A stretch of 32,000 bases of DNA from Nostoc punctiforme PCC 73102 (GCF_000020025.1 NC_010628.1:750001-782000), one strand, 5' to 3'; shown: positions 6,869-22,939, counted from the first letter of the stretch. The notes: generated from the letters alone by a model not told the origin. Made by a program: numbers and translations.

Positions 6869-7849
6869 CTAAACTTGTTCATCCAATCGGCTGTAAATTT
6901 GACCATCGTTCCATAGTGATTGGATGACAGTACCCAAGGCTTTGAAAAAACCCAAAATGTAGAAAATAGCGCGAGTGGCAATTTTGATGGGGGAACCACT
7001 TTTATGGCAGGGTGGTCGTCCCAGAACGTGACAGTCAAATAAACGACCGTATAGGCGTAAAGCTTGAGTCGCAGTCAGGTTTTTCAGTCCTAGCAGGAAA
7101 TGGTTGTGATAAAAGGTGAGTTGATATTTTAGCGATCGCATACTAATATCATGACAACCCCCTGTTTCTTCGCCTAAATGCACCAAATGGGCTTCTGGGT
7201 CGTACCAAATTTTATATCCGGTTTGTCGCACCCGCAAACAAAAATCTGACTCTTCGCGCACTGCACTACCGCGAAACCTCTCATCAAACCTCAATCCATA
7301 CTTAGTAAAAATTTCGCGGCGAAATGACATATTACAACCCCTCGCTGTCAACACTTGCTGAGGTTTGGTGGTATGTACTAAATCAATATGATACCAAGCA
7401 ATTCCTGGGTCCATAGCTTCGGGAGGCAGATATTCAATCTGCAAATCTCCTCCAGAATCACCTAATTTCATTCTGTCAAACACCCGTCCGGCGACAGCCC
7501 CCACTTCTGGATTTTCCAAATAATTTTTCGCATGGGCTGCTAACAATTCTGGGGTTAGCTGAACATCATCATCAATAAATAATATTATTTCACCAGAAGA
7601 CCGCCGCACAGCATAATTTCGCGCTCCTGGTAAACTTGCCCAATCTAATCGCAACCATTTAATTTTACCTACATCTGCCATCTCTTCTAGGTAGGCTTGA
7701 ATTTCTGGCTGGTGCGTTGGGGTTTGGTCTATTACTAAAACTTCAAAATTGGGATAATCCTGTTTTAGGACATCTACAATGCTATCTCGTAGCGCTTCCT
7801 CTCTACCATAAGTCGGGATAACTACAGAAATTAAAGGATAATTATCCAT
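6869..7849 (-). CDS. Glycosyltransferase family 2 (GT-A)
   Basis: N-terminal ISVVIPTYGREE, DQ at the end of beta-2 and a DxD motif FIDDDV. Confidence 0.85.
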   Translation of the reverse strand: MDNYPLISVVIPTYGREEALRDSIVDVLKQDYPNFEVLVIDQTPTHQPEIQAYLEEMADVGKIKWLRLDWASLPGARNYAVRRSSGEIILFIDDDVQLTPELLAAHAKNYLENPEVGAVAGRVFDRMKLGDSGGDLQIEYLPPEAMDPGIAWYHIDLVHTTKPQQVLTARGCNMSFRREIFTKYGLRFDERFRGSAVREESDFCLRVRQTGYKIWYDPEAHLVHLGEETGGCHDISMRSLKYQLTFYHNHFLLGLKNLTATQALRLYGRLFDCHVLGRPPCHKSGSPIKIATRAIFYILGFFKALGTVIQSLWNDGQIYSRLDEQV

Positions 7850-7985
7850 GATTTTTATTAAGTGATTTTTCTATTTTGATAATAACCTGATAAAAATTAA
7901 TTTTCATTAACTTTACTAAGCTACTATTGCCTTAATTTACAGTCAGTCAAGAACCGAAGAACTAATTAAGATTACTTTTAATTCT

Positions 7986-9143
7986 TTATACTCCTGCCGC
8001 AGCCGCATAGAGATTATCAAATAACTCATTTTGCTTTTCGGAGTTATGTACAAGTTGCGCTTGATCTAATGCTCCTGCACTTAAAAATTCGTAATGTTCT
8101 CGTTTATCACTTCTATCAAGAAATTGCATGATTTGTTGCAATGCTTGTTCTGCTAAATAGTCATAAGTGCTATCGACAATTTCCCAATATTCATCAGTTT
8201 TAGTTTTCTCTCCATGTAGCCAATTGCTCCAGTGCCTAATTTCATTAATTGGTAACTCTAAAATATAACCATTTTCACCATTACGAACAAACTCTGGTAA
8301 GGCGCAAACATTTGTCGTAATTACAGGAGTTGCAACAGAAAAACCTTCAATGATACTATAACCATAAGTATCATGTAATGTTGCCATTAATTGAAAATGG
8401 CTTTGCGATAATAGCTCAATAACTTTGTCATTAGGAATATTTCTATGGAAGACAACGTTACTTAATTTCAGTAACTTTAAATCCTCTACATATTTACTGC
8501 GATCTGGGAAATCAGTTGGAACTCCTGAACCATGTTCCAGTCCAGATATTATATGTACAGTAATGGGCAAACCTAGTTTTTCAGCTTTCTGGGCTAGTCT
8601 TAAAGCAACAACCCCACCTTTACGGGCAATGTGATTTCCGATAAATACAAGCTGGAGATTTTGCTGTTCCTGATAAATTTTCGATTGTTTAACTTTGATT
8701 GGAAAGTTGGGATGAATAACATCCACTTTCTTACTTACTTTTTCTTCTATTTTCCAACCTTCTATCCGCTTGATTAATCTCAACTTGGCATAATCAGAAA
8801 TTGCAATAATTTTTTTACAATTGTCTAGTGCTAATCGATGATTTAATAATTCATAAATTGCTGCTTCAACTTTATTTTGAGGATTTCTATATAAGACACG
8901 ATGATCCTCAAAGGTGAGAAACCAAGGTTTATTAGTATATAAAATTCTGTTGAAAGAATGAATTGCTTGGTATCTTTGCCATACAGGTTGCCAAGCCATA
9001 AAACTGGCTAAAGGATACCAAATTTTTTCTATAGGATATCTGCCTGCGGGGAAAGGCTTGGGGTAGATGAGTGTATGCCGAGAATTTCGAGGTAAGTTGG
9101 GAATGCTGAGGTGTTTTTGACCTCCTATGATAACTTTTGCCAT
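7986..9143 (-). CDS. Glycosyltransferase, GT1/GT4-like (GT-B)
   Basis: 385 aa with YGYSIIEGFSVATPVITTNVCALPEFV, an E-x7-E-type donor-binding region. Confidence 0.7.
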   Translation of the reverse strand: MAKVIIGGQKHLSIPNLPRNSRHTLIYPKPFPAGRYPIEKIWYPLASFMAWQPVWQRYQAIHSFNRILYTNKPWFLTFEDHRVLYRNPQNKVEAAIYELLNHRLALDNCKKIIAISDYAKLRLIKRIEGWKIEEKVSKKVDVIHPNFPIKVKQSKIYQEQQNLQLVFIGNHIARKGGVVALRLAQKAEKLGLPITVHIISGLEHGSGVPTDFPDRSKYVEDLKLLKLSNVVFHRNIPNDKVIELLSQSHFQLMATLHDTYGYSIIEGFSVATPVITTNVCALPEFVRNGENGYILELPINEIRHWSNWLHGEKTKTDEYWEIVDSTYDYLAEQALQQIMQFLDRSDKREHYEFLSAGALDQAQLVHNSEKQNELFDNLYAAAAGV

Positions 9144-9154
9144 TTTTATTTCAT

Positions 9155-10837
9155 TTAAATTGTTTTTAGACGTTTTCTCTTGTTTTTTTGCTCAGGGTTG
9201 GCATCTTCCTTATCTTGTTTCTCTAATTCTGGCAGTTTAAAAAGAACTCCCGCAAAAAACCAATAATAGACAGCAACCGGGTCAACATCTAGAGGATAGT
9301 AGTAGGTGTTGTAGCTAATAAACAATATAAACACCCATAAAGCTGCTCCGTAACTGCGGAAATTACGGTTCTTTATGGAGCGATAGGTTTTAAAGCCCAT
9401 AATTGTTAAACTTGTTACCAAACCCAAAAAAGCTAGTACTCCAATAATTCCAACTTCAAAAAGGACTTTGGGGTAGTAGGTTTCTACCAGTTTAGTTTTA
9501 CCCATTGCGCGGGCAGAGTTAGTTGCTCGACCTAAGCCACTTCCTAAAGGCCCATCTACATTTTTCCAATTCTCTTCAAATTGCTGGACGATAAAATCTT
9601 GAGGTGGTGAAGCCTCCCACCGACCCGTAAAACTCTCGGTTCTCTCCTGGACGACGGTAGGGTTAGTTACCATCACAATTCCTAAAACTATAGCCAGTCC
9701 TATACCTATGGGGATAAATCGTTTAAGGTTGCCAATTTGACCAGTCAGCAATAGCAAAATCCCGAAACAGATTGGTACTAAGGCTAAGGCGATTCTTTGT
9801 CCAGAAATTACAGCATTGATAAAGACTGTTACTAAAGAACCTAAACCGACTAGCCGCCAAATTATAGAGGGATCGGTGAAGCCGGTGGCAAAGGTAAAAA
9901 AGGTGCTGGAAATTAAGAACCACGCCCATTGCCAAGGGGCTACAAATGTTCCTGGCAGACGAATTACTCCCTCTTCTGGACTATATAAAAGCGCTCCACC
10001 AAAATAACACCGGGCTTCTAGTGATGTGACAAATAGGGCATTTCCTTCAAGACCTCTAGTGCCTTGACATACACCAGTTAGTAGTAAGAGGTATTGGATA
10101 CATCCCAACACACAACATATCAGTATGAGAACAATTTGGAGGCGCGATAAAAAGAGAAAATCCCGCTTATCCCGAATTAGATAGTAAGCACAACCAATCA
10201 GAGGGACATAACCTAAAAATACTTTTAGCCCCAAAATTCCCATACCTAAAGGTATTTCTTTCTCTGCTTTTTCTAATAGTCCGACGCTAGGCGGGTTAAA
10301 CTGCTGTCCACCATTGACAAACAATAGTGTTAGTACACTGCAACCCAAGACAATATAAAGCGGAATTTTAATGCCTTGGGGAATAATTAAAGGTAATCCC
10401 TGCTTACGACAAGTTTGCCAAAGTCCAATTAGCGCTGGAACATAAAAGGCATCTTTAGCTAATTGGAGTATGGGACTACTGCCTAAATAGTAGGTGATGG
10501 TACCCCCAACAGGTACGTAAATGATGAAGGCATATAGCGCTTGGCGCGGGTATTTGTAAGAAAGGGATATGATGATTATCCCTAAAACACCGGGGACTGC
10601 TGCTTTAATTCCACCTACGAAAAAAAGCACAACGCCAACGAATAAACCGCCAAAAGTGGCGGTGGTGAGTAAACTAATGAGTTCTTTACGTGCTAGGGCT
10701 GCTTTGCGTTTTTGGGCTAACTGTTCTTTGAGACTAAGAGTAGAAGTTTCCTTAGAAGTCTGCTTTTTCGATTTTTTAGATGTCTTGGATTTTGACTTTA
10801 TTTTCGGCATAGTAGCGCTGTAGCCTATCAGCATCAA
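9155..10837 (-). CDS. O-antigen polymerase/ligase (Wzy_C)-like polytopic membrane protein
   Basis: About 12 hydrophobic segments. The loop GSGLGRATNSARAMGKTKLVETYYPKVLFEVGIIG resembles the Wzy_C/O-antigen-ligase signature ending in E-x-G-I-I-G. A K/S-rich N-terminal tail is present. The start could instead be ATG 10810 (MPKIKSK). Confidence 0.6.
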   Translation of the reverse strand: MMLIGYSATMPKIKSKSKTSKKSKKQTSKETSTLSLKEQLAQKRKAALARKELISLLTTATFGGLFVGVVLFFVGGIKAAVPGVLGIIIISLSYKYPRQALYAFIIYVPVGGTITYYLGSSPILQLAKDAFYVPALIGLWQTCRKQGLPLIIPQGIKIPLYIVLGCSVLTLLFVNGGQQFNPPSVGLLEKAEKEIPLGMGILGLKVFLGYVPLIGCAYYLIRDKRDFLFLSRLQIVLILICCVLGCIQYLLLLTGVCQGTRGLEGNALFVTSLEARCYFGGALLYSPEEGVIRLPGTFVAPWQWAWFLISSTFFTFATGFTDPSIIWRLVGLGSLVTVFINAVISGQRIALALVPICFGILLLLTGQIGNLKRFIPIGIGLAIVLGIVMVTNPTVVQERTESFTGRWEASPPQDFIVQQFEENWKNVDGPLGSGLGRATNSARAMGKTKLVETYYPKVLFEVGIIGVLAFLGLVTSLTIMGFKTYRSIKNRNFRSYGAALWVFILFISYNTYYYPLDVDPVAVYYWFFAGVLFKLPELEKQDKEDANPEQKNKRKRLKTI

Positions 10838-15103: not shown

Positions 15104-17191
15104 TCATCCTAAACTGGATATTGCTGTGCGATCGCTATCTTCATCTTGTAGCGGTAAATCATATTTATTATAGAGAACTTTTATATGTCGGCTAAATTGC
15201 TCCTCTACAAAATAGCTGCTAGAAAATTCACTTGCAAAAGAAACTTGGTGAAAGTGATAATCTAGATTTAGTAGATTGTAGACAAGTCTTAAAAAATAAT
15301 CATCGATCCAGAAATCTACATCAAATAGTGAAATACCATATTTCCCTTCCAACCTACGATTTAAAGTTTTTAGTAACCAAGACCATTGAGGTTTGAGGGT
15401 GGGATCGATACGGTTCCCAAATACAGGATTAAAAAACTGATTTACTTGAGTTGTTCTCACATCAATCACTTTAGTTAGTAAATCTGCTGCTTTGATTGGA
15501 GATGAATTAAACCAATAGTTAGCAACTACTAAATCATGTAAATAAGCAACTACAATTTTAGGGTTTTCTTTAATGAACTGCGATCGACAAACAATTCCTC
15601 TGATTGATGGAATTCTTAAACTACTTGTTTGAGATAAAGGCAGCTTTCTCACAAAAGCGTAAGCTTCTAGAATTGAGGCGAAAGTGTAACAGCATACGTA
15701 AGCATCTATAGTTTTGTTTGCCAAACTCTTACTTGCTTTACGAGGATCTTCATTCACTAATCTACAATCTTTACTGACATCCATATTATAGAGGTCAAAA
15801 AGAGTGATGATGAACCTATGAGCATTGGAACCAAATAAGGTAGAAATTCGTTTACCTTTGAGATCCTGAACAGTATTTATAGAAGAATCTTTATGCAAAA
15901 CAATATTTATATCTTGACCTAAAAGATTATATGAAGCAATCCCAATTAATTTAGAACCAAAACTAAAATCATCAAAGAATTGACTACCATTATTCAAGAG
16001 ATAAATATCATCTAAAATACAAATATCTAGCTCTCCCCGCTTTATGTGTCGGTTCATTTGTTCGCCAGAGTCAAAAGGTAGAATTTGTAACTCGAAATTT
16101 CGAGTAATTTCAATATTTTTGAAAATAGCCTGTTCAAATGATGAAGATGCTCTCTGTAAATCAGAAATATACTTAGTCCCATACCCAGCAATAAACTGTC
16201 CTATAGAATCTCTCTGAATACCTATCCTCAGAATTTTTTCCTTTTTAGGAGAATACCTATTTAAAATTAAGTTTATATTAGTCAAGCTTTCCAAATTGTC
16301 TCGATCGAGTCTAAAGCTTCTCACCAAACCCTCTGCGGATATTAACAACTCACTAAAGCGAGGAACATGCAGATAAATACCATATTCATTAACATCTTGA
16401 ATAGTCAGAGTAAAAACTTGGTATTGAGCTATTATCTCAGCTTGGCAAAAGTCAGGTAAAATCGTTATTTTTTGGTTTTTTGAGGCATAATTTAGTACAT
16501 CTTTATAACTGTTTAGCACGTGTACGCCGCTTAATTGGTTTCTCAAAAATACATTTTTAGATAGTTCTTGATAAACCTCGTCTAAAAGCACAAGATCAGC
16601 CAGATTAATATCATTTATGTTAACTAAGCTATGCTCATTCAAATATTTATTTGCTCCAAAGACAAACAACAGCATTTTATGAGTTTTTAATCTAGTGCAG
16701 TGGTGTTCTTCTTTATATCCAGAGCAAGTGTTGAGTAGTAGCTCCATTTCTCTGAGGTGAGAATTGGAAAAAAATCTGCTATCTTTAACCGCAATTTTTT
16801 TGAGATTTCTGTCTGGAAAACAAAGCTGAAATCGCTGCAAATATTGTTTTAGCCAGACTTCTAAAATTAAACTAGTAGCCCCCAATATTAAATCTTCACC
16901 TTCAGCGCTAAATGTTGCCTGAAATTCTTCTTGCAGATTTTCTACAGTTTCTACAACATTAAATGTCTGGGAAATCAATTTCTTGCCTTTATTAGTCAAG
17001 CATATAGAGCCGGGAGAGCGATTTAACAGAATTACTCCGAAATAATCCTCTATCTGTTTGACTTTTTTACTAATTAATGATTGACTATAACCTAGTTTTT
17101 GTGCTGCTTTAGAGAAGCTACCACAGTCATCTACTGCTTTTAAAATTTTGATGTGGTTTAGGGTAATATCTTCGAGTTTAATTTTATTCAT
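15104..17191 (-). CDS. LysR-type transcriptional regulator fused to a C-terminal SsuA/NitT/TauT-like solute-binding domain (695 aa)
   Basis: Residues 1-70 form a LysR HTH (FSKAAQKLGYSQSLISKKVKQIEDYFGVILLNR). Residues about 95-295 have the length and layout of an LTTR effector domain. Residues about 318-640 carry SBP-type patterns: VQDLKGKRISTLFGSNAHRF...VNEDPRKASKSLANKTIDAYV and FIKENPKIVVAYLHDLVVANYW. The gene is visibly more AT-rich than its neighbours. Confidence 0.7.
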   Translation of the reverse strand: MNKIKLEDITLNHIKILKAVDDCGSFSKAAQKLGYSQSLISKKVKQIEDYFGVILLNRSPGSICLTNKGKKLISQTFNVVETVENLQEEFQATFSAEGEDLILGATSLILEVWLKQYLQRFQLCFPDRNLKKIAVKDSRFFSNSHLREMELLLNTCSGYKEEHHCTRLKTHKMLLFVFGANKYLNEHSLVNINDINLADLVLLDEVYQELSKNVFLRNQLSGVHVLNSYKDVLNYASKNQKITILPDFCQAEIIAQYQVFTLTIQDVNEYGIYLHVPRFSELLISAEGLVRSFRLDRDNLESLTNINLILNRYSPKKEKILRIGIQRDSIGQFIAGYGTKYISDLQRASSSFEQAIFKNIEITRNFELQILPFDSGEQMNRHIKRGELDICILDDIYLLNNGSQFFDDFSFGSKLIGIASYNLLGQDINIVLHKDSSINTVQDLKGKRISTLFGSNAHRFIITLFDLYNMDVSKDCRLVNEDPRKASKSLANKTIDAYVCCYTFASILEAYAFVRKLPLSQTSSLRIPSIRGIVCRSQFIKENPKIVVAYLHDLVVANYWFNSSPIKAADLLTKVIDVRTTQVNQFFNPVFGNRIDPTLKPQWSWLLKTLNRRLEGKYGISLFDVDFWIDDYFLRLVYNLLNLDYHFHQVSFASEFSSSYFVEEQFSRHIKVLYNKYDLPLQDEDSDRTAISSLG

Positions 17192-17310: not shown

Positions 17311-18360
17311 TTACAAGGGAATTAAGATATTCTGCTGTGTATATTTTGATATTACTAATTCGTGGAAGCGAATAGTATCTTCCAACATAGATTCAAATTT
17401 GAGTACTATTAAGTCAACGCCAACAGCTTCGTATTCTTTCAGGCGGTTAAGAATAGTATAGCGATCGCCAACGAGTTGAGCAGATAAACCAAGGTTAGCT
17501 TCAATGGTTTGCTTGATATCGAGTTTGTTATGGGCAACGACATTAGGATCGATTTGTTCTTGAAAGTACTTGATTTGCTGCTGATTGGCAGAACGATAAA
17601 TCGCTTCTAATCTGGCTTCGGCTTGGGAAGTATGTTCACGAACGATCGCAAATGCACTCATTGCTACTTTAATCTGACGGCCGTAGCGATCGCTAGCTAA
17701 TCTTTTCACTTTCTGCACCAATGCTGCCGTTTTTTCAGGTTCATCAGCATTGATAAATAGATAATCTCCCTGACGAGCCGCTAAGTCAATCGCCCTGTCT
17801 GATTCGCCGGCAATGAAAATAGGTGGTGTTGGTGTAGGCTTATCTGTGAGGATACCACCCGCAATATTGTAGTATTTGCCAACATAATTAAAGTCTTCAA
17901 CTGTCCACAGCCCCTTAATTACATCAATGTACTCTTCTAATCGCGCGTAGCGATCGCTGTGAGGTAGCCAGACATCTCCATAGCTTTCTACTTCTAATTT
18001 CCACCAACCTGCAATACCACTCAGAGCAAATCTGCCGTTACTAAGTTGATTTTGAATGTTTGCACTCAGCTTCGCAATAACCGCAGGCAATTTAAAACCA
18101 GGTTGTACAGCCGCAACAATCTTGATATTCTTGGTGTTCAAACTTGCTAAAGCTGCTGTAATCCAAGCATCAGCGACATTATAGTTAGGGCCATGAACTG
18201 CATTTAAGTAATGTTCAGGAATGTAATAAAAGTCATAACCTAACTCGTCTGCCTGAACTGCCAGTTTCACCAAATCTTGAGTGGATAAATTAGCTTCATG
18301 GTTGACAACCCGCAATCATCCACCACAGACCGGCGACCAAATTCCAAACTGAAGTGTCAT
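17311..18360 (-). CDS. LLM-class (RutA/SfnG-like) flavin-dependent monooxygenase with an in-frame TGA at codon 15; possible pseudogene
   Basis: The minus strand from ATG 18360 reads MTLQFGIWSPVCGG-TGA-LRVVNHE..., in the same frame as the 334-codon track ORF (TTG at 18315). The family N-terminus is ..GG/NG-W-L.. (RutA: PIGNNGWLIS), so the TGA at 18316-18318 sits where TGG (Trp) is expected. The rest of the frame is intact, with NGRFALSGIAGWW. Confidence 0.7.
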
Positions 18361-18635
18361 AAATCTTTTTCCTGTGCCTTTTTTTACGAGATATCTATTT
18401 AACTACGGTATCTATATCTTTTTGCCGTGGTTTAGTAGTTCACACTACCACATTTATTTCTGCTGTGCATAGTTGCAGATGACACATGTAAATCACTTGC
18501 TTATCACGTTCTGGAATAGTATCAAAACTTTAGTCAAATATTGATTTCTGGTTGTTCTGACTGAATCTGACTGAATCAGGATGATAGCCAGCAAATATAA
18601 AATAATAATTAAATACACAGCCAAATTGAGCAGTA

Positions 18636-18661
18636 TTCCATTTTGGAACATGGAAATGGAA
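18636..18661. promoter_or_regulatory. Candidate LTTR-type operator: TTCCA-N3-TGGAA (T-N11-A) followed by two more TGGAA half-sites
   Basis: TTCCA TTT TGGAA CA TGGAA A TGGAA. It overlaps the 9-bp inverted repeat ATTCCATTT/AAATGGAAT (18635-18643 and 18654-18662). It lies in the divergent region between the two LLM genes. Confidence 0.3.
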
Positions 18662-18783
18662 TTTAAGTATATCAAGTCACGACATCGGAAAAATTCTCGT
18701 GATAAAGTCTGATTCATTAAAAACTACGGTAGTTCAGTCGGCTTATAGTATATTGCGACCATAAGAACCTGAAATTGTCTACT

Positions 18784-18965: not shown

Positions 18966-18993
18966 CCTCCTGCCTCCTGGCTCCTGCCTCCTT
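18966..18993. repeat. Heptamer tandem repeat CCTCCTG x4 (STRR-like)
   Basis: CCTCCTG CCTCCTG GCTCCTG CCTCCTT, in the 5' leader region of the sfnG-like gene. Confidence 0.6.
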
Positions 18994-19030: not shown

Positions 19031-20128
19031 ATGGTAGATATTAAGTTCGCATACTGGATTCCCAACGTTAGCGGTGGGTTAGTTGTTAGTAAAATTCCCC
19101 AACGAACAGATTGGACTTATGAATATAACGCTAAACTAGCTCAGACTGCTGAAGAAGTTGGATTTGAATATGCACTAGCACAAGCCAGATTTATCGCCAG
19201 CTATGGCGCTGAATATCAGTTAGAGGCATTAACAACCGTATCAGCCTTGGCTCCAGTTACCAAGAAATTAAAGCTAATTGCAGCAGTTCACCCTGGATTG
19301 TGGCATCCGGGAGTAGTGGCTAAAATCGGCTCTAGCATTGATTTTCTCTCTAACGGACGGTTCGCTCTGAATGTAGTTAGCGGCTGGTTCAAAGATGAAT
19401 TCACTATATATGGTGAACATTGGTTAGATCATGACGAATGCTATCGTCGTTCAGAAGAATTTATCCGCGTTCTCAAAGGTTTGTGGACTGAGGATGAGTT
19501 TCACTTTAAAGGCGATTTTTACCGCATTAACGGCGGTTGGGTGAAGCCTAAACCAGTTAATCAGAATCCACACCCGGAGATATTCCAAGGTGGTAATTCC
19601 AAAGCTGCGCGGCGCATGGCTGGTCGTGTCTCTGATTGGTATTTTATGAATGGCAACACCATAGAAGGGGTGCGAGAGCAGATTGAAGAAGTGTCTGCAT
19701 TAGCGCGTCAAGCAGGACGCAAAATTAAGTTTGGTCTGAATTCCTTTATCATCGTGCGAGATACAGAAGCAGAAGCCCATGAAGTATTGCGCGATATTAT
19801 TGCCCAAGCCGATGTAGAGGCGGTGAAAGGATTTGGTGAAGCAGTGAAACAAGCCGGATCTTCTACTCGTGAACGTCAGGGAATGTGGGCGAATTCCAAT
19901 TTTGAAGACTTGGTGCAATATAACGATGGGTTCCGTTCAGGCTTGATTGGCACTGCCGAGCAGGTGGCTGAAAAGATTCGCCAGTTTCATGAAGCGGGAG
20001 TTGATTTAATTCTCGGTGGCTTCTTACACTACACAGATGATTTACCTGCATTTGGTAAGACAGTAATTCCGATTGTGCGCGAACTTAAAGCTACTCGTCG
20101 GACAGCTGATGAGTTAGTTGGAGTATAG
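19031..20128 (+). CDS. sfnG: FMNH2-dependent dimethylsulfone monooxygenase-like LLM enzyme (SfnG family)
   Basis: The N-terminus IKFAYWIPNVSGGLVVSKIPQRTDW, NGRFALNVVSGWFKDEF, VSDWYFMNGN and FEDLVQYNDGF closely follow my recollection of Pseudomonas SfnG. Confidence 0.75.
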   Translation: MVDIKFAYWIPNVSGGLVVSKIPQRTDWTYEYNAKLAQTAEEVGFEYALAQARFIASYGAEYQLEALTTVSALAPVTKKLKLIAAVHPGLWHPGVVAKIGSSIDFLSNGRFALNVVSGWFKDEFTIYGEHWLDHDECYRRSEEFIRVLKGLWTEDEFHFKGDFYRINGGWVKPKPVNQNPHPEIFQGGNSKAARRMAGRVSDWYFMNGNTIEGVREQIEEVSALARQAGRKIKFGLNSFIIVRDTEAEAHEVLRDIIAQADVEAVKGFGEAVKQAGSSTRERQGMWANSNFEDLVQYNDGFRSGLIGTAEQVAEKIRQFHEAGVDLILGGFLHYTDDLPAFGKTVIPIVRELKATRRTADELVGV

Positions 20129-20239: not shown

Positions 20240-21448
20240 ATGACATCAGTAATTAATACTGGTCAGAAGGCGCATATTATTCGAGATGACAAAGAAGCGA
20301 TCGCGATCGCTCACGAATTAGCAGCTGAGTTTGCCAAGGGAGACTCAGAACGCGACCAAAATCGGCGTTTACCTGCTGAGGAAGTAGAAAAGTTCTCCCA
20401 GAGTGGATTGTGGGGAATTACGGTTCCTCAAGAGTATGGTGGGGCTTTTGTATCAAATGCAACCCTAGCAGAAGTAATTAAAATCATCTCCGAAGCTGAT
20501 TCTAGCCTCGGTCAAATTCCCCAAAACCACCTTTATATGGTGGAAGCAGTTCGGTTGGATGGCACTGATGAGCAGAAAAAGTTCTTCTTTGATTTGGTTC
20601 TACAAGGTAAACGCTTTGGTAACGCTTTCTCGGAAGTAGGTACTAAGTCTGTTAATGATGTGCAGACAAAGTTACAACCAGATGGATCTGACTTCGTACT
20701 TAATGGACGTAAATACTACTCTGCTGGGGCATTGCTAGCACATTGGGTTCCTGTCATTGCCAGTAATCCAGATGGTAAAACAGTGGTGGCATTTGTCGAA
20801 AGAGATGCCGAAGGATTAACCCTACTCGATGACTGGACGAGCTTTGGACAGCGTACCACCGCTAGCGGCACTACCATTATTGAAAATGTGAAAGTTAAGG
20901 CAGAACACGTGATTCCGCACTACTTAGCTTTTGAACGGGCGACACCAATGGGTGCGATCGCGCAAATCATCCAAGCCGCCGTAGATGTGGAAATTGCCAA
21001 AGCCGCAGTCCGTGACACCATTCACTTTGTGCGTAAATATACTCGCCCTTGGGTTGACAGCAATTTAGAAAAAGGTTACGAAGACCCCCTGACACTGTAC
21101 AACTTAGGCAATGTCCAAATTCAGGTTCACGCTTCTGAAGCATTGCTGCGTCGTGCAGGTGAATTTCTTGACATCGCCAACGAGTCAGGTTTAGAAGAAC
21201 TCAAGGTAGTTGAAGCATCGATCGCAGTTGCTGAAGCCAAAGCCTTAGCCACCGAAGCAGCATTACTAGCTACCAACAAATTGTTTGAACTAGCAGGTAC
21301 TAAGTCCACATTGGAGGAATTCAACTACAATCGCCACTGGCGAAATGCCCGCGCTCACACACTCCACGATCCCGTGCGTTGGAAGTACTACGCTGTTGGT
21401 AACTACTTTCTCAATGGTGTCTATCCCCCGCGCCATCCTTGGTTGTAA
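20240..21448 (+). CDS. Acyl-CoA dehydrogenase-fold sulfur-acquisition oxidoreductase (SfnB/DszC-like)
   Basis: 402 aa with an ACAD fold and the C-terminal signature NRHWRNARAHTLHDPVRWK typical of the SfnB family. An AAGGAG RBS lies 6 nt upstream of the ATG. Confidence 0.75.
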   Translation: MTSVINTGQKAHIIRDDKEAIAIAHELAAEFAKGDSERDQNRRLPAEEVEKFSQSGLWGITVPQEYGGAFVSNATLAEVIKIISEADSSLGQIPQNHLYMVEAVRLDGTDEQKKFFFDLVLQGKRFGNAFSEVGTKSVNDVQTKLQPDGSDFVLNGRKYYSAGALLAHWVPVIASNPDGKTVVAFVERDAEGLTLLDDWTSFGQRTTASGTTIIENVKVKAEHVIPHYLAFERATPMGAIAQIIQAAVDVEIAKAAVRDTIHFVRKYTRPWVDSNLEKGYEDPLTLYNLGNVQIQVHASEALLRRAGEFLDIANESGLEELKVVEASIAVAEAKALATEAALLATNKLFELAGTKSTLEEFNYNRHWRNARAHTLHDPVRWKYYAVGNYFLNGVYPPRHPWL

Positions 21449-21787: not shown

Positions 21788-22939
21788 ATGCAATTAATCG
21801 AAACGAAAGAGTCTCAAAATTATCTTGATTTAGCTAAGTCTTTAGCAAAAGAATTTGCCCAAACTGCTGTAGAGCGGGATGCTCAAGGGGGCACACCAAA
21901 ACATGAACGCGATCGCTTGCGCCAAAGCAACTTACTGAAACTGATCGTACCCACAGAATTCGGTGGTTTAGGGCAAAGCTGGATTACTGTTCTGCAAATT
22001 ACCCGCGAGTTTGCCAAAGTTGATAGCTCTATTGCTCACGTCTTTTCTTACCACCATCTAGGTGTAGTAATCCCTCATATCTTTGGTTCAGCACAGCAAA
22101 AACAGCGATATTACTCAGAAACTATTCACAACAATTGGTTTTGGTGCAATGCTCTTAACCCATTAGATAAAAGAACTACTCTGACACCAGAAAATGATTA
22201 TTTCCGTCTCAACGGCATTAAAAGCTTTTGCTCTGGCTCTCAAGACTCGGATATATTGCCGATTACTGCCACTCATCAAGAAACTAATGAATTGAATATT
22301 CTGGTAATTCCCACCCAACGGCAAGGCGTTACAGTTCATGATGATTGGGATAATATGGGGCAACGCCAAACAGACAGTGGTAGTGTTACTTTTGAAAATG
22401 TGTTGGTATACCCTGAAGAAATTCTTGGTAGTAGAAACAAAGCCAATCAACCCTTCAATACTATTCGTGCCTGCTTGACTCAATTGAATCTTGCTAATAT
22501 CTACCTGGGAATTGCACAGGGAGTATTTGAAGCTGCTAAAACATATACTTCCACTAATACCAAACCTTGGCTGACATCAGGTGTAGAGAGTGCAACCCAA
22601 GATCCTTACATCCTTCAGCACTATGGCAAAATCTGGGTTGATCTCCAAGCAGCCGTGTATCTTACTGAGCAGGCGGGAGAATTACTACAAGCAGCTTGGG
22701 AGCAGGAATGGTCACTTACCGCCGAACAACGGGCAGAATGTGCGCTCTTAGTTGCTACTGCCAAAGTCTTCGCAACTAAAGTTGGTTTAGACATTACCAA
22801 CCGAATATTTGAAGTTATGGGCGCACGCGCTACTAGTGCCAAATATGGCTTTGATCGTTATTGGCGTAATCTCCGCACGTTCACTTTGCACGATCCAGTA
22901 GATTACAAAATCCAAGAGATTGGAAAGTGGGCATTATAA
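21788..22939 (+). CDS. Acyl-CoA dehydrogenase-fold oxidoreductase (SfnB/DszC-like paralog)
   Basis: 383 aa with C-terminal FDRYWRNLRTFTLHDPVDYK, parallel to the upstream paralog. A GGAGAAG RBS region is present. Confidence 0.75.
   Translation: MQLIETKESQNYLDLAKSLAKEFAQTAVERDAQGGTPKHERDRLRQSNLLKLIVPTEFGGLGQSWITVLQITREFAKVDSSIAHVFSYHHLGVVIPHIFGSAQQKQRYYSETIHNNWFWCNALNPLDKRTTLTPENDYFRLNGIKSFCSGSQDSDILPITATHQETNELNILVIPTQRQGVTVHDDWDNMGQRQTDSGSVTFENVLVYPEEILGSRNKANQPFNTIRACLTQLNLANIYLGIAQGVFEAAKTYTSTNTKPWLTSGVESATQDPYILQHYGKIWVDLQAAVYLTEQAGELLQAAWEQEWSLTAEQRAECALLVATAKVFATKVGLDITNRIFEVMGARATSAKYGFDRYWRNLRTFTLHDPVDYKIQEIGKWAL

Follow-up and report, generated by a model that had tools for sequence, protein, structure and literature searches.

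The regulator described here is encoded in Nostoc punctiforme PCC 73102 by a single open reading frame (ORF) of 695 residues, which lies at positions 15104 to 17191 on the minus strand of a 32,000-nucleotide window (NC_010628.1, 750001 to 782000), the whole stretch of DNA that was analyzed and the reference for all window coordinates and residue numbers below. It consists of a LysR-type transcriptional regulator (LTTR) fused to a C-terminal module with the fold of SsuA and TauA, the periplasmic binding proteins of ABC importers. With a probability of roughly 60%, we consider the protein to be a soluble, cytoplasmic one-component regulator, confined to cyanobacteria, in which the SsuA/TauA-fold module acts as a sensor for organosulfur-assimilation genes. 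No family of bacterial transcription factors is larger than the LTTRs, in which sensing is generally assigned to a single PBP2-fold effector domain; here, the additional module would provide a second sensor. The regulator combines two known kinds of part, and analogs are known, but we found no characterized example. The literature searched contained no description of an LTTR with a SsuA-like domain, nor of a regulator of sulfone or sulfonate assimilation in cyanobacteria, in agreement with an initial annotation of this DNA, whose author knew of no characterized regulator with such an architecture.

The ORF begins with ATG, contains no internal stop codon, and is supported as one gene by full-length homologs down to 47% identity and by 67 genomic loci. 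Its boundaries are exactly those given in the initial annotation, which had noted that the product is more than twice the size of a canonical LTTR. An AlphaFold2 model of the full-length regulator, computed with 52 family members as input (mean predicted local distance difference test score [pLDDT] of 72, predicted TM-score [pTM] of 0.46), comprises a helix-turn-helix (HTH) at residues 11 to 65, a long linker helix at 67 to 94, an alternating beta/alpha region at 101 to 294, disorder at 295 to 317, and a second alpha/beta domain from residue 319 onward. The winged HTH (residues 11 to 69; 16985 to 17161, minus strand) matches Pfam HTH_1 (PF00126) with 61.5 bits against a gathering cut-off of 26.6, consistently with its invariant columns and the helices in the model; at the recognition helix (residues 37 to 51), S36, Q37, S41, K42, K43, Q46, and E48 are invariant in the family. 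The following PBP2-fold region (residues 101 to 294; 16310 to 16891, minus strand) is a diverged LTTR effector-binding domain, identified by its fold matches, its invariant residues, and a sub-threshold match to Pfam LysR_substrate (PF03466; residues 101 to 282, 14.9 bits against 28, E 0.018). By fold, the N-terminal half is nevertheless a full LTTR, as had been proposed for residues 1 to 295: Foldseek aligns it with full-length CcmR, CbnR, BenM, and OxyR (E ~1e-16 to 1e-14), and the best PDB sequence matches of the regulator include NtcB and OxyR. A disordered linker (residues 295 to 318; 16238 to 16309, minus strand; pLDDT <50) connects this half to the C-terminal module (residues 319 to ~660; 15212 to 16237, minus strand), and the protein ends in a variable stretch (residues 661 to 695; 15107 to 15211, minus strand) with pLDDT <50, a majority-residue fraction of 0.34, and a gap fraction of 0.34.

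The C-terminal module belongs to the NitT/TauT-type binding proteins of the NMT1 superfamily, as judged from Pfam, NCBIfam, a profile search of PDB chains, and Foldseek. Residues 429 to 550 match Pfam NMT1 (PF09084) with 35.3 bits against a gathering cut-off of 20.5, and the best non-LysR match is the NCBIfam model SsuA_fam (TIGR01728; residues 410 to 598, E 3.6e-20). With the full model as the query, Foldseek retrieved Escherichia coli SsuA from the PDB (2x26) at an E of 1.4e-16, with target TM-scores of 0.73 to 0.76 for Xanthomonas citri SsuA and E. coli TauA (6ssy, 0.76). When the module was modeled alone (pTM 0.74), the best eight matches were all SsuA or TauA, with target TM-scores of 0.67 to 0.77, followed by 3un6, the ligand-binding component of a Staphylococcus aureus ABC importer, and then by DszB and THI5. 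A profile of the module matched the PDB chains of SsuA and TauA with E values of ~1e-19 and DszB with 2.7e-6, while 2i48 was reached with an E of 0.008 only, the best matches being SsuA/TauA and not NrtA/CmpA. The profile searches of the C-terminal half and the structural comparison with SsuA/TauA had both been proposed in the initial annotation, and both bear out its assignment of the fold. The sequence patterns on which that assignment had relied are also present: DLKGKRISTLFGSNAH at residues 442 to 458, IDAYV at 495 to 499, and FIKENPKIVVAYLHDLVVANYW at 539 to 560. Its span of about 318 to 640 is right at the start and too short at the end. Residues 591 to 660 align with the C-terminal helices of SsuA and DszB, so that the module spans ~319 to 660, and the idea that this tail might be a separate new domain is ruled out by the same alignment. 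Confidence for the tail is low in the full-length model and moderate when the module is modeled alone.

Between the regulator and seven distant family members, identity amounts to 58 to 81% in the HTH, 29 to 51% in the effector domain, 12 to 33% in the linker, 52 to 63% in the lobes of the solute-binding protein (SBP) module, and 80 to 87% in residues 591 to 660. The canonical effector domain is the fastest-evolving folded part of the regulator. Judged from these alignments, the transporter-type module is constrained more tightly than the sensor domain typical of LTTRs.

The regulator has neither a signal peptide nor a membrane segment, the highest 19-residue Kyte-Doolittle mean being 1.18. 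Because the HTH stands at the N terminus, secretion is ruled out, and the whole protein, including the SBP domain, is cytoplasmic, as had been suggested. A ToxR-like, membrane-spanning topology with a periplasmic SBP is excluded by the absence of any hydrophobic segment. It is from the fusion of this cytoplasmic SBP fold to an HTH that we infer its regulatory role.

A conserved cleft argues that the module binds a ligand. X. citri SsuA holds the sulfonate through Gln36, Ser141, and the backbone amides of Gly68 and Gly86, with Trp185 facing the pocket, and the corresponding residues of TauA are Gln30, Gly61, Gly79, and Thr132 (PMC3839906, PMC6906117). We assigned the equivalent positions from profile alignments of the module to SsuA/TauA. 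Two of the four sulfonate-coordinating positions are kept, namely, the invariant Q326 (SsuA Q36, TauA Q30) and G376 (first glycine, G68/G61), which is the majority residue at its position and stands beside the near-invariant S375. The other two are replaced, one by the invariant D394 (second glycine, G86/G79) and one by N456 (SsuA S141, TauA T132). N456 is near-invariant (at least 90%), as are H458, which corresponds to the histidine in the SsuA “GSSAH” motif, and C501, which aligns with SsuA W185 (at least 90% each). Judged from the alignments, the pocket is thus conserved but chemically remodeled. The earlier reading as a transporter-type binding module is borne out for the SsuA/TauA fold, but the module is not an SsuA ortholog.

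The fusion is present in many independent cyanobacterial genomes. A protein search returned 113 homologs, mostly of the full-length fusion and 99% down to 47% identical, from Nostoc, Aulosira, Egbenema, Elainellaceae, Leptolyngbya, Phormidesmis, and others; they are annotated merely as “LysR family transcriptional regulator.” Scanning one genome per GTDB species, which provides the phylogenetic survey called for at the outset, located 67 loci among the species representatives, all of them cyanobacterial except for one probably mis-binned contig. This sole match outside cyanobacteria, in an “Acetobacteraceae” metagenome-assembled genome (MAG), is a 2.5-kb contig that is 90% identical to Nostoc, and presence outside cyanobacteria was therefore rejected. 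Three loci (L015, L049, and L071) look like binning errors in public MAGs: the flanking GC content of L049, from a “Microcystis” MAG, is 0.53, well above the ~0.42 to 0.43 of Microcystis genomes, and L071, from another “Microcystis” MAG, gave the same 64%-identity match.

When residues 311 to 695 alone were searched exhaustively, identity fell steeply from the family itself to ~30%. The closest non-fusion relatives of the module are two Sulfuriferula binding proteins of ~485 residues (P0115 and P0116) with a C-terminal NosL (copper chaperone-like) domain, which is an unusual architecture in itself. Nine more 50%-identity clusters (P0147, P0159, P0223, P0167, P0132, P0226, P0208, P0246, and P0166) also join a LysR N terminus to an NMT1-like C terminus; their proteins are 637 to 714 residues long and less than 30% identical to the module, and the organism-named members are all cyanobacterial (e.g., Cyanobium sp. 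NAT70). A Pfam scan of five of these clusters found a canonical, strong LysR_substrate domain in four and none above an E of 0.01 in P0147. Another apparently cytoplasmic use of the fold was seen in P0124 (779 residues), with N-terminal HEAT repeats and a C-terminal NMT1_2-type module.

The initial annotation had remarked that the gene is AT rich, and indeed its GC content (0.330) is the lowest of the 24 ORFs in the window, which has an overall value of 0.402; the segment for residues 301 to 330, in the linker region, reaches 0.267. In 13 of 13 lineages tested, the regulator gene lies 3 to 15 GC points under its locus. The deficit is thus a family-wide trait and gives no evidence of recent transfer, and recent horizontal acquisition, as an explanation of the low GC content, was ruled out.

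Flavin-dependent organosulfur enzymes almost always adjoin the regulator. In the window, an SfnG-like luciferase-type monooxygenase (LLM) gene (17311 to 18360, minus strand), whose product has 349 residues in relatives, lies immediately upstream and in relatives is adjacent to or overlaps the regulator gene. Across a divergent region of 670 bp follow the dimethylsulfone monooxygenase gene sfnG (19031 to 20128, plus strand; TIGR04021, 622 bits against a cut-off of 383), an SfnB-family ACAD-fold sulfur-acquisition oxidoreductase gene (20240 to 21448, plus strand; TIGR04022, 628 bits against 431), and a gene for a second ACAD-fold flavoprotein (21788 to 22939, plus strand) that is DszC/SfnB-like and scores below both cut-offs. 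The organosulfur monooxygenase neighbors noted earlier are therefore well supported by the SfnG and SfnB scores. In Pseudomonas, SfnG, the ACAD-fold MsuC, and the LLM MsuD together with a flavin mononucleotide (FMN) reductase turn dimethylsulfone into sulfite (PMC11588060). Among the annotated ORFs of the window there is no ABC transporter gene, no ABC ATPase, and no NasT. The missing ABC transporter had been pointed out before, which holds for the window but not throughout the family, as Egbenema and Phormidesmis have an ssuABC-like operon ~4 to 7 kb from the regulator. The transporter commonly linked to the regulator is an SSF symporter.

The SfnG-like monooxygenase gene has an in-frame TGA at codon 15 (18316 to 18318, minus strand; MTLQFGIWSPVCGG*LRVV compared with ...GGWLRVV), and the ORF finder gave only a TTG restart of 334 residues. 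In all 45 orthologous loci examined, Trp occupies this position; the TGA reflects either a sequencing error or a nonsense mutation (TGG to TGA) confined to this strain.

Across the census, SfnG was found at 49 of the 67 loci, the SfnG-like LLM at 47, and SfnB at 46, and most of the remaining loci contain an SsuE-type reductase and an NtaA/DmoA monooxygenase. Two arrangements can be distinguished. In type I loci (Nostocales, Egbenema, and Elainella), sfnG and sfnB, with the SSF symporter gene, where present, between them, are transcribed divergently from the SfnG-like LLM gene and the regulator gene that follows it. In type II loci (Leptolyngbya-like genomes, Halomicronema, Phormidesmis, and marine MAGs), genes for an SSF symporter, a small unannotated protein, the regulator, an SsuE-type FMN reductase (230 bits against 164), and an NtaA/DmoA-family monooxygenase (485 bits against 280) follow each other in this order. 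The small protein (~165 to 178 residues; 7476 to 7979 in L001 and its equivalents, 3686 to 4219 in L009) always stands between the symporter and the regulator in type II loci; it matches no Pfam or NCBIfam model and may be an accessory subunit of the transporter.

The surroundings of type II loci often also encode RibBA and a putative sulfate exporter of the YeiH family. The gene for RibBA (DHBP synthase/GTP cyclohydrolase II, riboflavin synthesis) lies beside the type II operon, mostly in divergent orientation, in L001 (4107 to 5414), L004, L005, L006, L052, L058, and L076, which hints at a co-regulated flavin supply for the FMN-dependent enzymes.

A candidate operator was found in the divergent region, where conserved promoter blocks were obtained from a four-genome alignment. 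The T-N11-A palindrome TATTCCATTTTGGAACA at 18634 to 18650 has the form of an LTTR box; its consensus is TATTCCA-N3-TGGAATA, from which the window deviates by one mismatch. One copy is present in nearly every type I divergent region, and in most type II loci the palindrome precedes the SSF operon, lying between ribBA and the SSF gene in several of those with RibBA. It is thus common to both gene arrangements though their intergenic DNA is otherwise unalignable, and it is on this conservation across lineages that the argument for it is built. Because the recognition helix is invariant throughout the family and the palindrome occurs in both arrangements, we favor it as the candidate operator of the regulator, a prediction from sequence conservation.

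By analogy with known binding-protein systems, ligand-driven closure of a clamshell is the most likely mechanism. The regulator consists of three folded modules, the LysR DNA-binding domain, the diverged effector domain, which probably still serves as the oligomerization scaffold, and the SsuA/TauA-fold module on its flexible linker. A small sulfur-related metabolite would bind in the cleft between the two lobes of the C-terminal clamshell, closure of which would alter the packing of the module against the LTTR core. This change would shift the regulator between non-activating and activating states at the T-N11-A operator in the promoter that it shares with its targets. The predicted targets are sfnG-sfnB on one side and the operon of the SfnG-like monooxygenase and the regulator on the other; elsewhere, they would be the genes for the SSF symporter, the SsuE-type FMN reductase, and the NtaA/DmoA-type monooxygenase. 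A more specific version of this scheme is possible but on balance doubtful, namely, that the module is the primary sensor, that its Asp394/Asn456/Cys501 pocket recognizes a non-anionic or sulfinyl organosulfur compound (dimethylsulfone, dimethyl sulfoxide, or methanesulfinate), and that docking of the module on the LTTR core and release from it convey the signal, much as in the CmpC/NrtC domain.

Several observations weigh against a sensory module acting through the palindrome. Asp394 is invariant where SsuA, TauA, and DszB (Gly73) all have glycine. Since two of the four sulfonate contacts are changed, one of them to this Asp, the alignment makes a simple alkanesulfonate an unlikely ligand. 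The TIGR01728 score of the module, 72.4 bits, is far under the equivalog cut-off of 163.5, and with a pTM of 0.46 the relative orientation of the modules in the full-length model is not reliable. The canonical effector domain may be the real sensor or an additional one, given the Cys and His residues that are invariant within this fast-evolving domain (C124, H163, C165, C249, and H275, including an HHCTRL motif; window ~16365 to 16822); metal binding or redox sensing by these residues is a possibility. As to the palindrome, its counts come from orthologous, non-independent loci, and one spacing control is inflated, as the excess at a gap of 8 comes from conserved coding sequence.

A further point of this kind is a second conserved element in the same promoters, which could be the true operator or the site of another factor. 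It is bipartite and present at two positions in the window: site B, TACGGTA-N12-TGCCGTG (18401 to 18432), 41 to 72 nucleotides upstream of the ATG of the LLM-regulator operon, and site A, TACGGTA-N12-TATAGTA (18722 to 18753), on the sfnG side of the divergent region. When TACNGTA-N12-TACNGTA was counted with at most one mismatch, seven sites with a start-to-start distance of exactly 19 nucleotides were found in 76 kb, compared with zero or one at other spacings from 10 to 30 and 0.37 in shuffled sequences. Over all type I loci together, 84 sites have the 19-nucleotide spacing against 0 to 7 at other spacings, in two fixed positions; these counts, too, come from orthologous, non-independent loci, and such spacing controls are indicative only. 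Type II loci lack the element despite the invariant recognition helix, and as a family-wide operator it is therefore not supported. In Egbenema (L003, 14439 and 17285), the element also precedes ACAD-type and ssuABC-like operons several kilobases from the regulator, and in Elainella (L051) there are three extra copies, at 8094, 12759, and 12951. The distribution of these copies suggests a wider sulfur regulon.

Other roles for the module have to be considered. It is conceivable, though rather unlikely, that it senses inorganic sulfur status through a co-repressor signal given by sulfate, sulfite, thiosulfate, or some similar anion, and that any induction of the pathway proceeds through the canonical effector domain; the architecture would be unchanged, with the two sensors in exchanged roles. 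The Gln/Gly helix-dipole scaffold for sulfur oxyanions is partly retained, and the module is linked to two enzyme sets (SfnG/SfnB and NtaA/DmoA type), for which a common status signal would fit better than a pathway-specific substrate. The YeiH-family putative sulfate exporter adjoins some of the type II loci, and CysB, Cbl, and other LTTRs of sulfate starvation respond to metabolites that reflect sulfur status. An invariant Asp at the position of an anion-contacting Gly, however, should disfavor a bare oxyanion, and it is the only feature that tells this reading and the main one apart.

It is improbable that the module has ceased to bind small molecules and has become a protein-protein or oligomerization surface, docking on a partner or on the LTTR core. 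Such a role would accommodate the 80 to 87% identity of residues 591 to 660, which is above that of the HTH and of an extreme degree typical of interfaces for a helical surface; it would also fit the low confidence of this tail in the full-length model, as expected if a partner is needed, and the retention of just half of the canonical ligand contacts. The conservation of the pocket residues (Q326 and D394 invariant; N456, H458, and C501 at least 90%; G376 in the majority) is hard to explain without a function of the cleft, and the tail, which equals the normal C-terminal helices of SsuA and DszB, folds with moderate confidence on its own. Interface and ligand-binding roles are, moreover, compatible, as in the C-terminal domain of CmpC.

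Still less probable is that the module is a DszB-like desulfinase acting on sulfinates such as methanesulfinate, which would make the protein a bifunctional enzyme-regulator. DszB, the 2′-hydroxybiphenyl-2-sulfinate desulfinase of the 4S pathway, shares with the module a cytoplasmic location and an SBP-type fold and is homologous to it over ~290 residues, including the tail (profile E 2.7e-6; hhalign probability of 96% over DszB residues 73 to 361; Foldseek E 1.2e-13, with the longest alignment of all matches). Its partners, DszA-type (NtaA/DmoA family) and DszC-type (ACAD-fold) monooxygenases and an FMN reductase, are the classes of enzymes that flank the regulator, and Cys residues 500, 501, and 535 of the module are conserved. 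DszB is a stand-alone enzyme, however, and SsuA/TauA are much closer to the module by sequence (~1e-19) and rank above DszB by fold. The catalytic residue of DszB is Cys27, with His60 and Arg70; Q326 appears to occupy the position of Cys27, a correspondence that the DszB alignment, starting at residue 73, does not confirm, and when the module is aligned with E. coli SsuA its strand 1 ends in the SsuA-type Gln and not in a Cys. In addition, the SfnG pathway already has a sulfinate enzyme of the MsuC/SfnB type (PMC11588060).

That errors in sequencing or assembly fused two neighboring genes into an artefactual 695-residue ORF, a possibility that the initial annotation had allowed, is effectively refuted: one metagenomic contig (L078, 124 to 2171) does have two abutting ORFs, a 286-residue HTH part and a 395-residue SBP part split in the linker, but the fusion is uninterrupted in complete genomes and in dozens of independent assemblies from various genera at 46 to 97% identity, and P0087, the single seemingly stand-alone C-terminal protein that was checked, is truncated by the end of its contig. 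The split ORFs of L078 are followed by the usual FMN reductase and monooxygenase and represent either a natural fission or a frameshift error.

Viewed as a one-component regulator with an SsuA/TauA-fold sensor, the protein can be compared with several known systems. With canonical LTTRs (CysB and Cbl; CcmR/NdhR, NtcB, and CmpR of cyanobacteria) it shares the winged HTH, the long linker helix, and the PBP2-fold effector domain, as well as a position divergent from its putative targets, with a T-N11-A palindrome, at which binding is predicted, in the shared promoter. It differs from these proteins of ~300 residues and two modules in its length of 695 residues, in the third module of ~340 residues after a disordered linker, and in an effector domain that is sub-threshold in PF03466. 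With SsuA and TauA (PDB 2x26, 3e4r/3ksj, and 6ssy), the module shares the fold, sequence homology, the sulfonate Gln and first Gly, and the DLKGK...G-x-x-x-H motif, whereas it has Asp394, Asn456, and Cys501 in place of G86, S141, and W185 of SsuA, lacks a signal peptide, is fused to a transcription factor, and has no permease or ATPase gene in the window.

Closer functional parallels are offered by cytoplasmic binding proteins of the NitT/TauT type. NasS, which is NrtA-like and lacks an export signal, senses nitrate and nitrite in the cytoplasm, and nitrate binding makes it release the antiterminator NasT (PMC3795266). The regulatory role proposed for the module would be similar, but NasS is a separate polypeptide that contacts an RNA-binding ANTAR protein and serves nitrogen genes, while the module is fused to a DNA-binding LTTR and is associated with sulfur genes. 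The C-terminal regulatory domains of NrtC and CmpC, which add a helical C-terminal subdomain to a NitT/TauT-type SBP fold, lock the ABC ATPase to which they belong until nitrate binds (PMC13287603). These domains are likewise cyanobacterial, cytoplasmic, and fused at the C terminus of another functional protein; their host is an ABC ATPase, their ligand nitrate, and their output transport, in contrast to a transcription factor host and an organosulfur context here. In Pseudomonas, the same niche of a dedicated regulator beside the dimethylsulfone genes is filled by SfnR, the sigma-54-dependent activator of sfnG (references listed in PMC13352529). SfnR is an enhancer-binding protein of the unrelated NtrC type with a different sensing principle.

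A second, transporter-type module that is better conserved than the canonical sensor domain amounts to a natural experiment in allosteric rewiring and in the recruitment of periplasmic binding proteins as intracellular sensors. If the module is indeed the primary sensor, then, together with the roughly nine other families of LTTR-NMT1 fusions, it would suggest that cyanobacteria tend to convert the binding proteins of transporters into such sensors. The regulator offers an entry point to the assimilation of organosulfur compounds (dimethylsulfone and sulfonates) by cyanobacteria, including many lichen-symbiotic Nostoc strains, for which the present analysis offers a candidate regulator with its predicted operator and regulon and names particular residues as targets for mutation. 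Biosensors for small organosulfur compounds could also be built on the module as a scaffold.

Two minor features of the window remain to be mentioned. Just upstream of the sfnG start, CTCCTGCCTCCT is repeated twice in direct tandem (18967 to 18992), an arrangement absent from the aligned region of the three other genomes compared. Farther away, at 6869 to 10837, hpsN and hpsL of hormogonium polysaccharide synthesis exceed their equivalog cut-offs and have glycosyltransferase genes as flanking neighbors, consistent with a Nostoc-type filamentous cyanobacterium.

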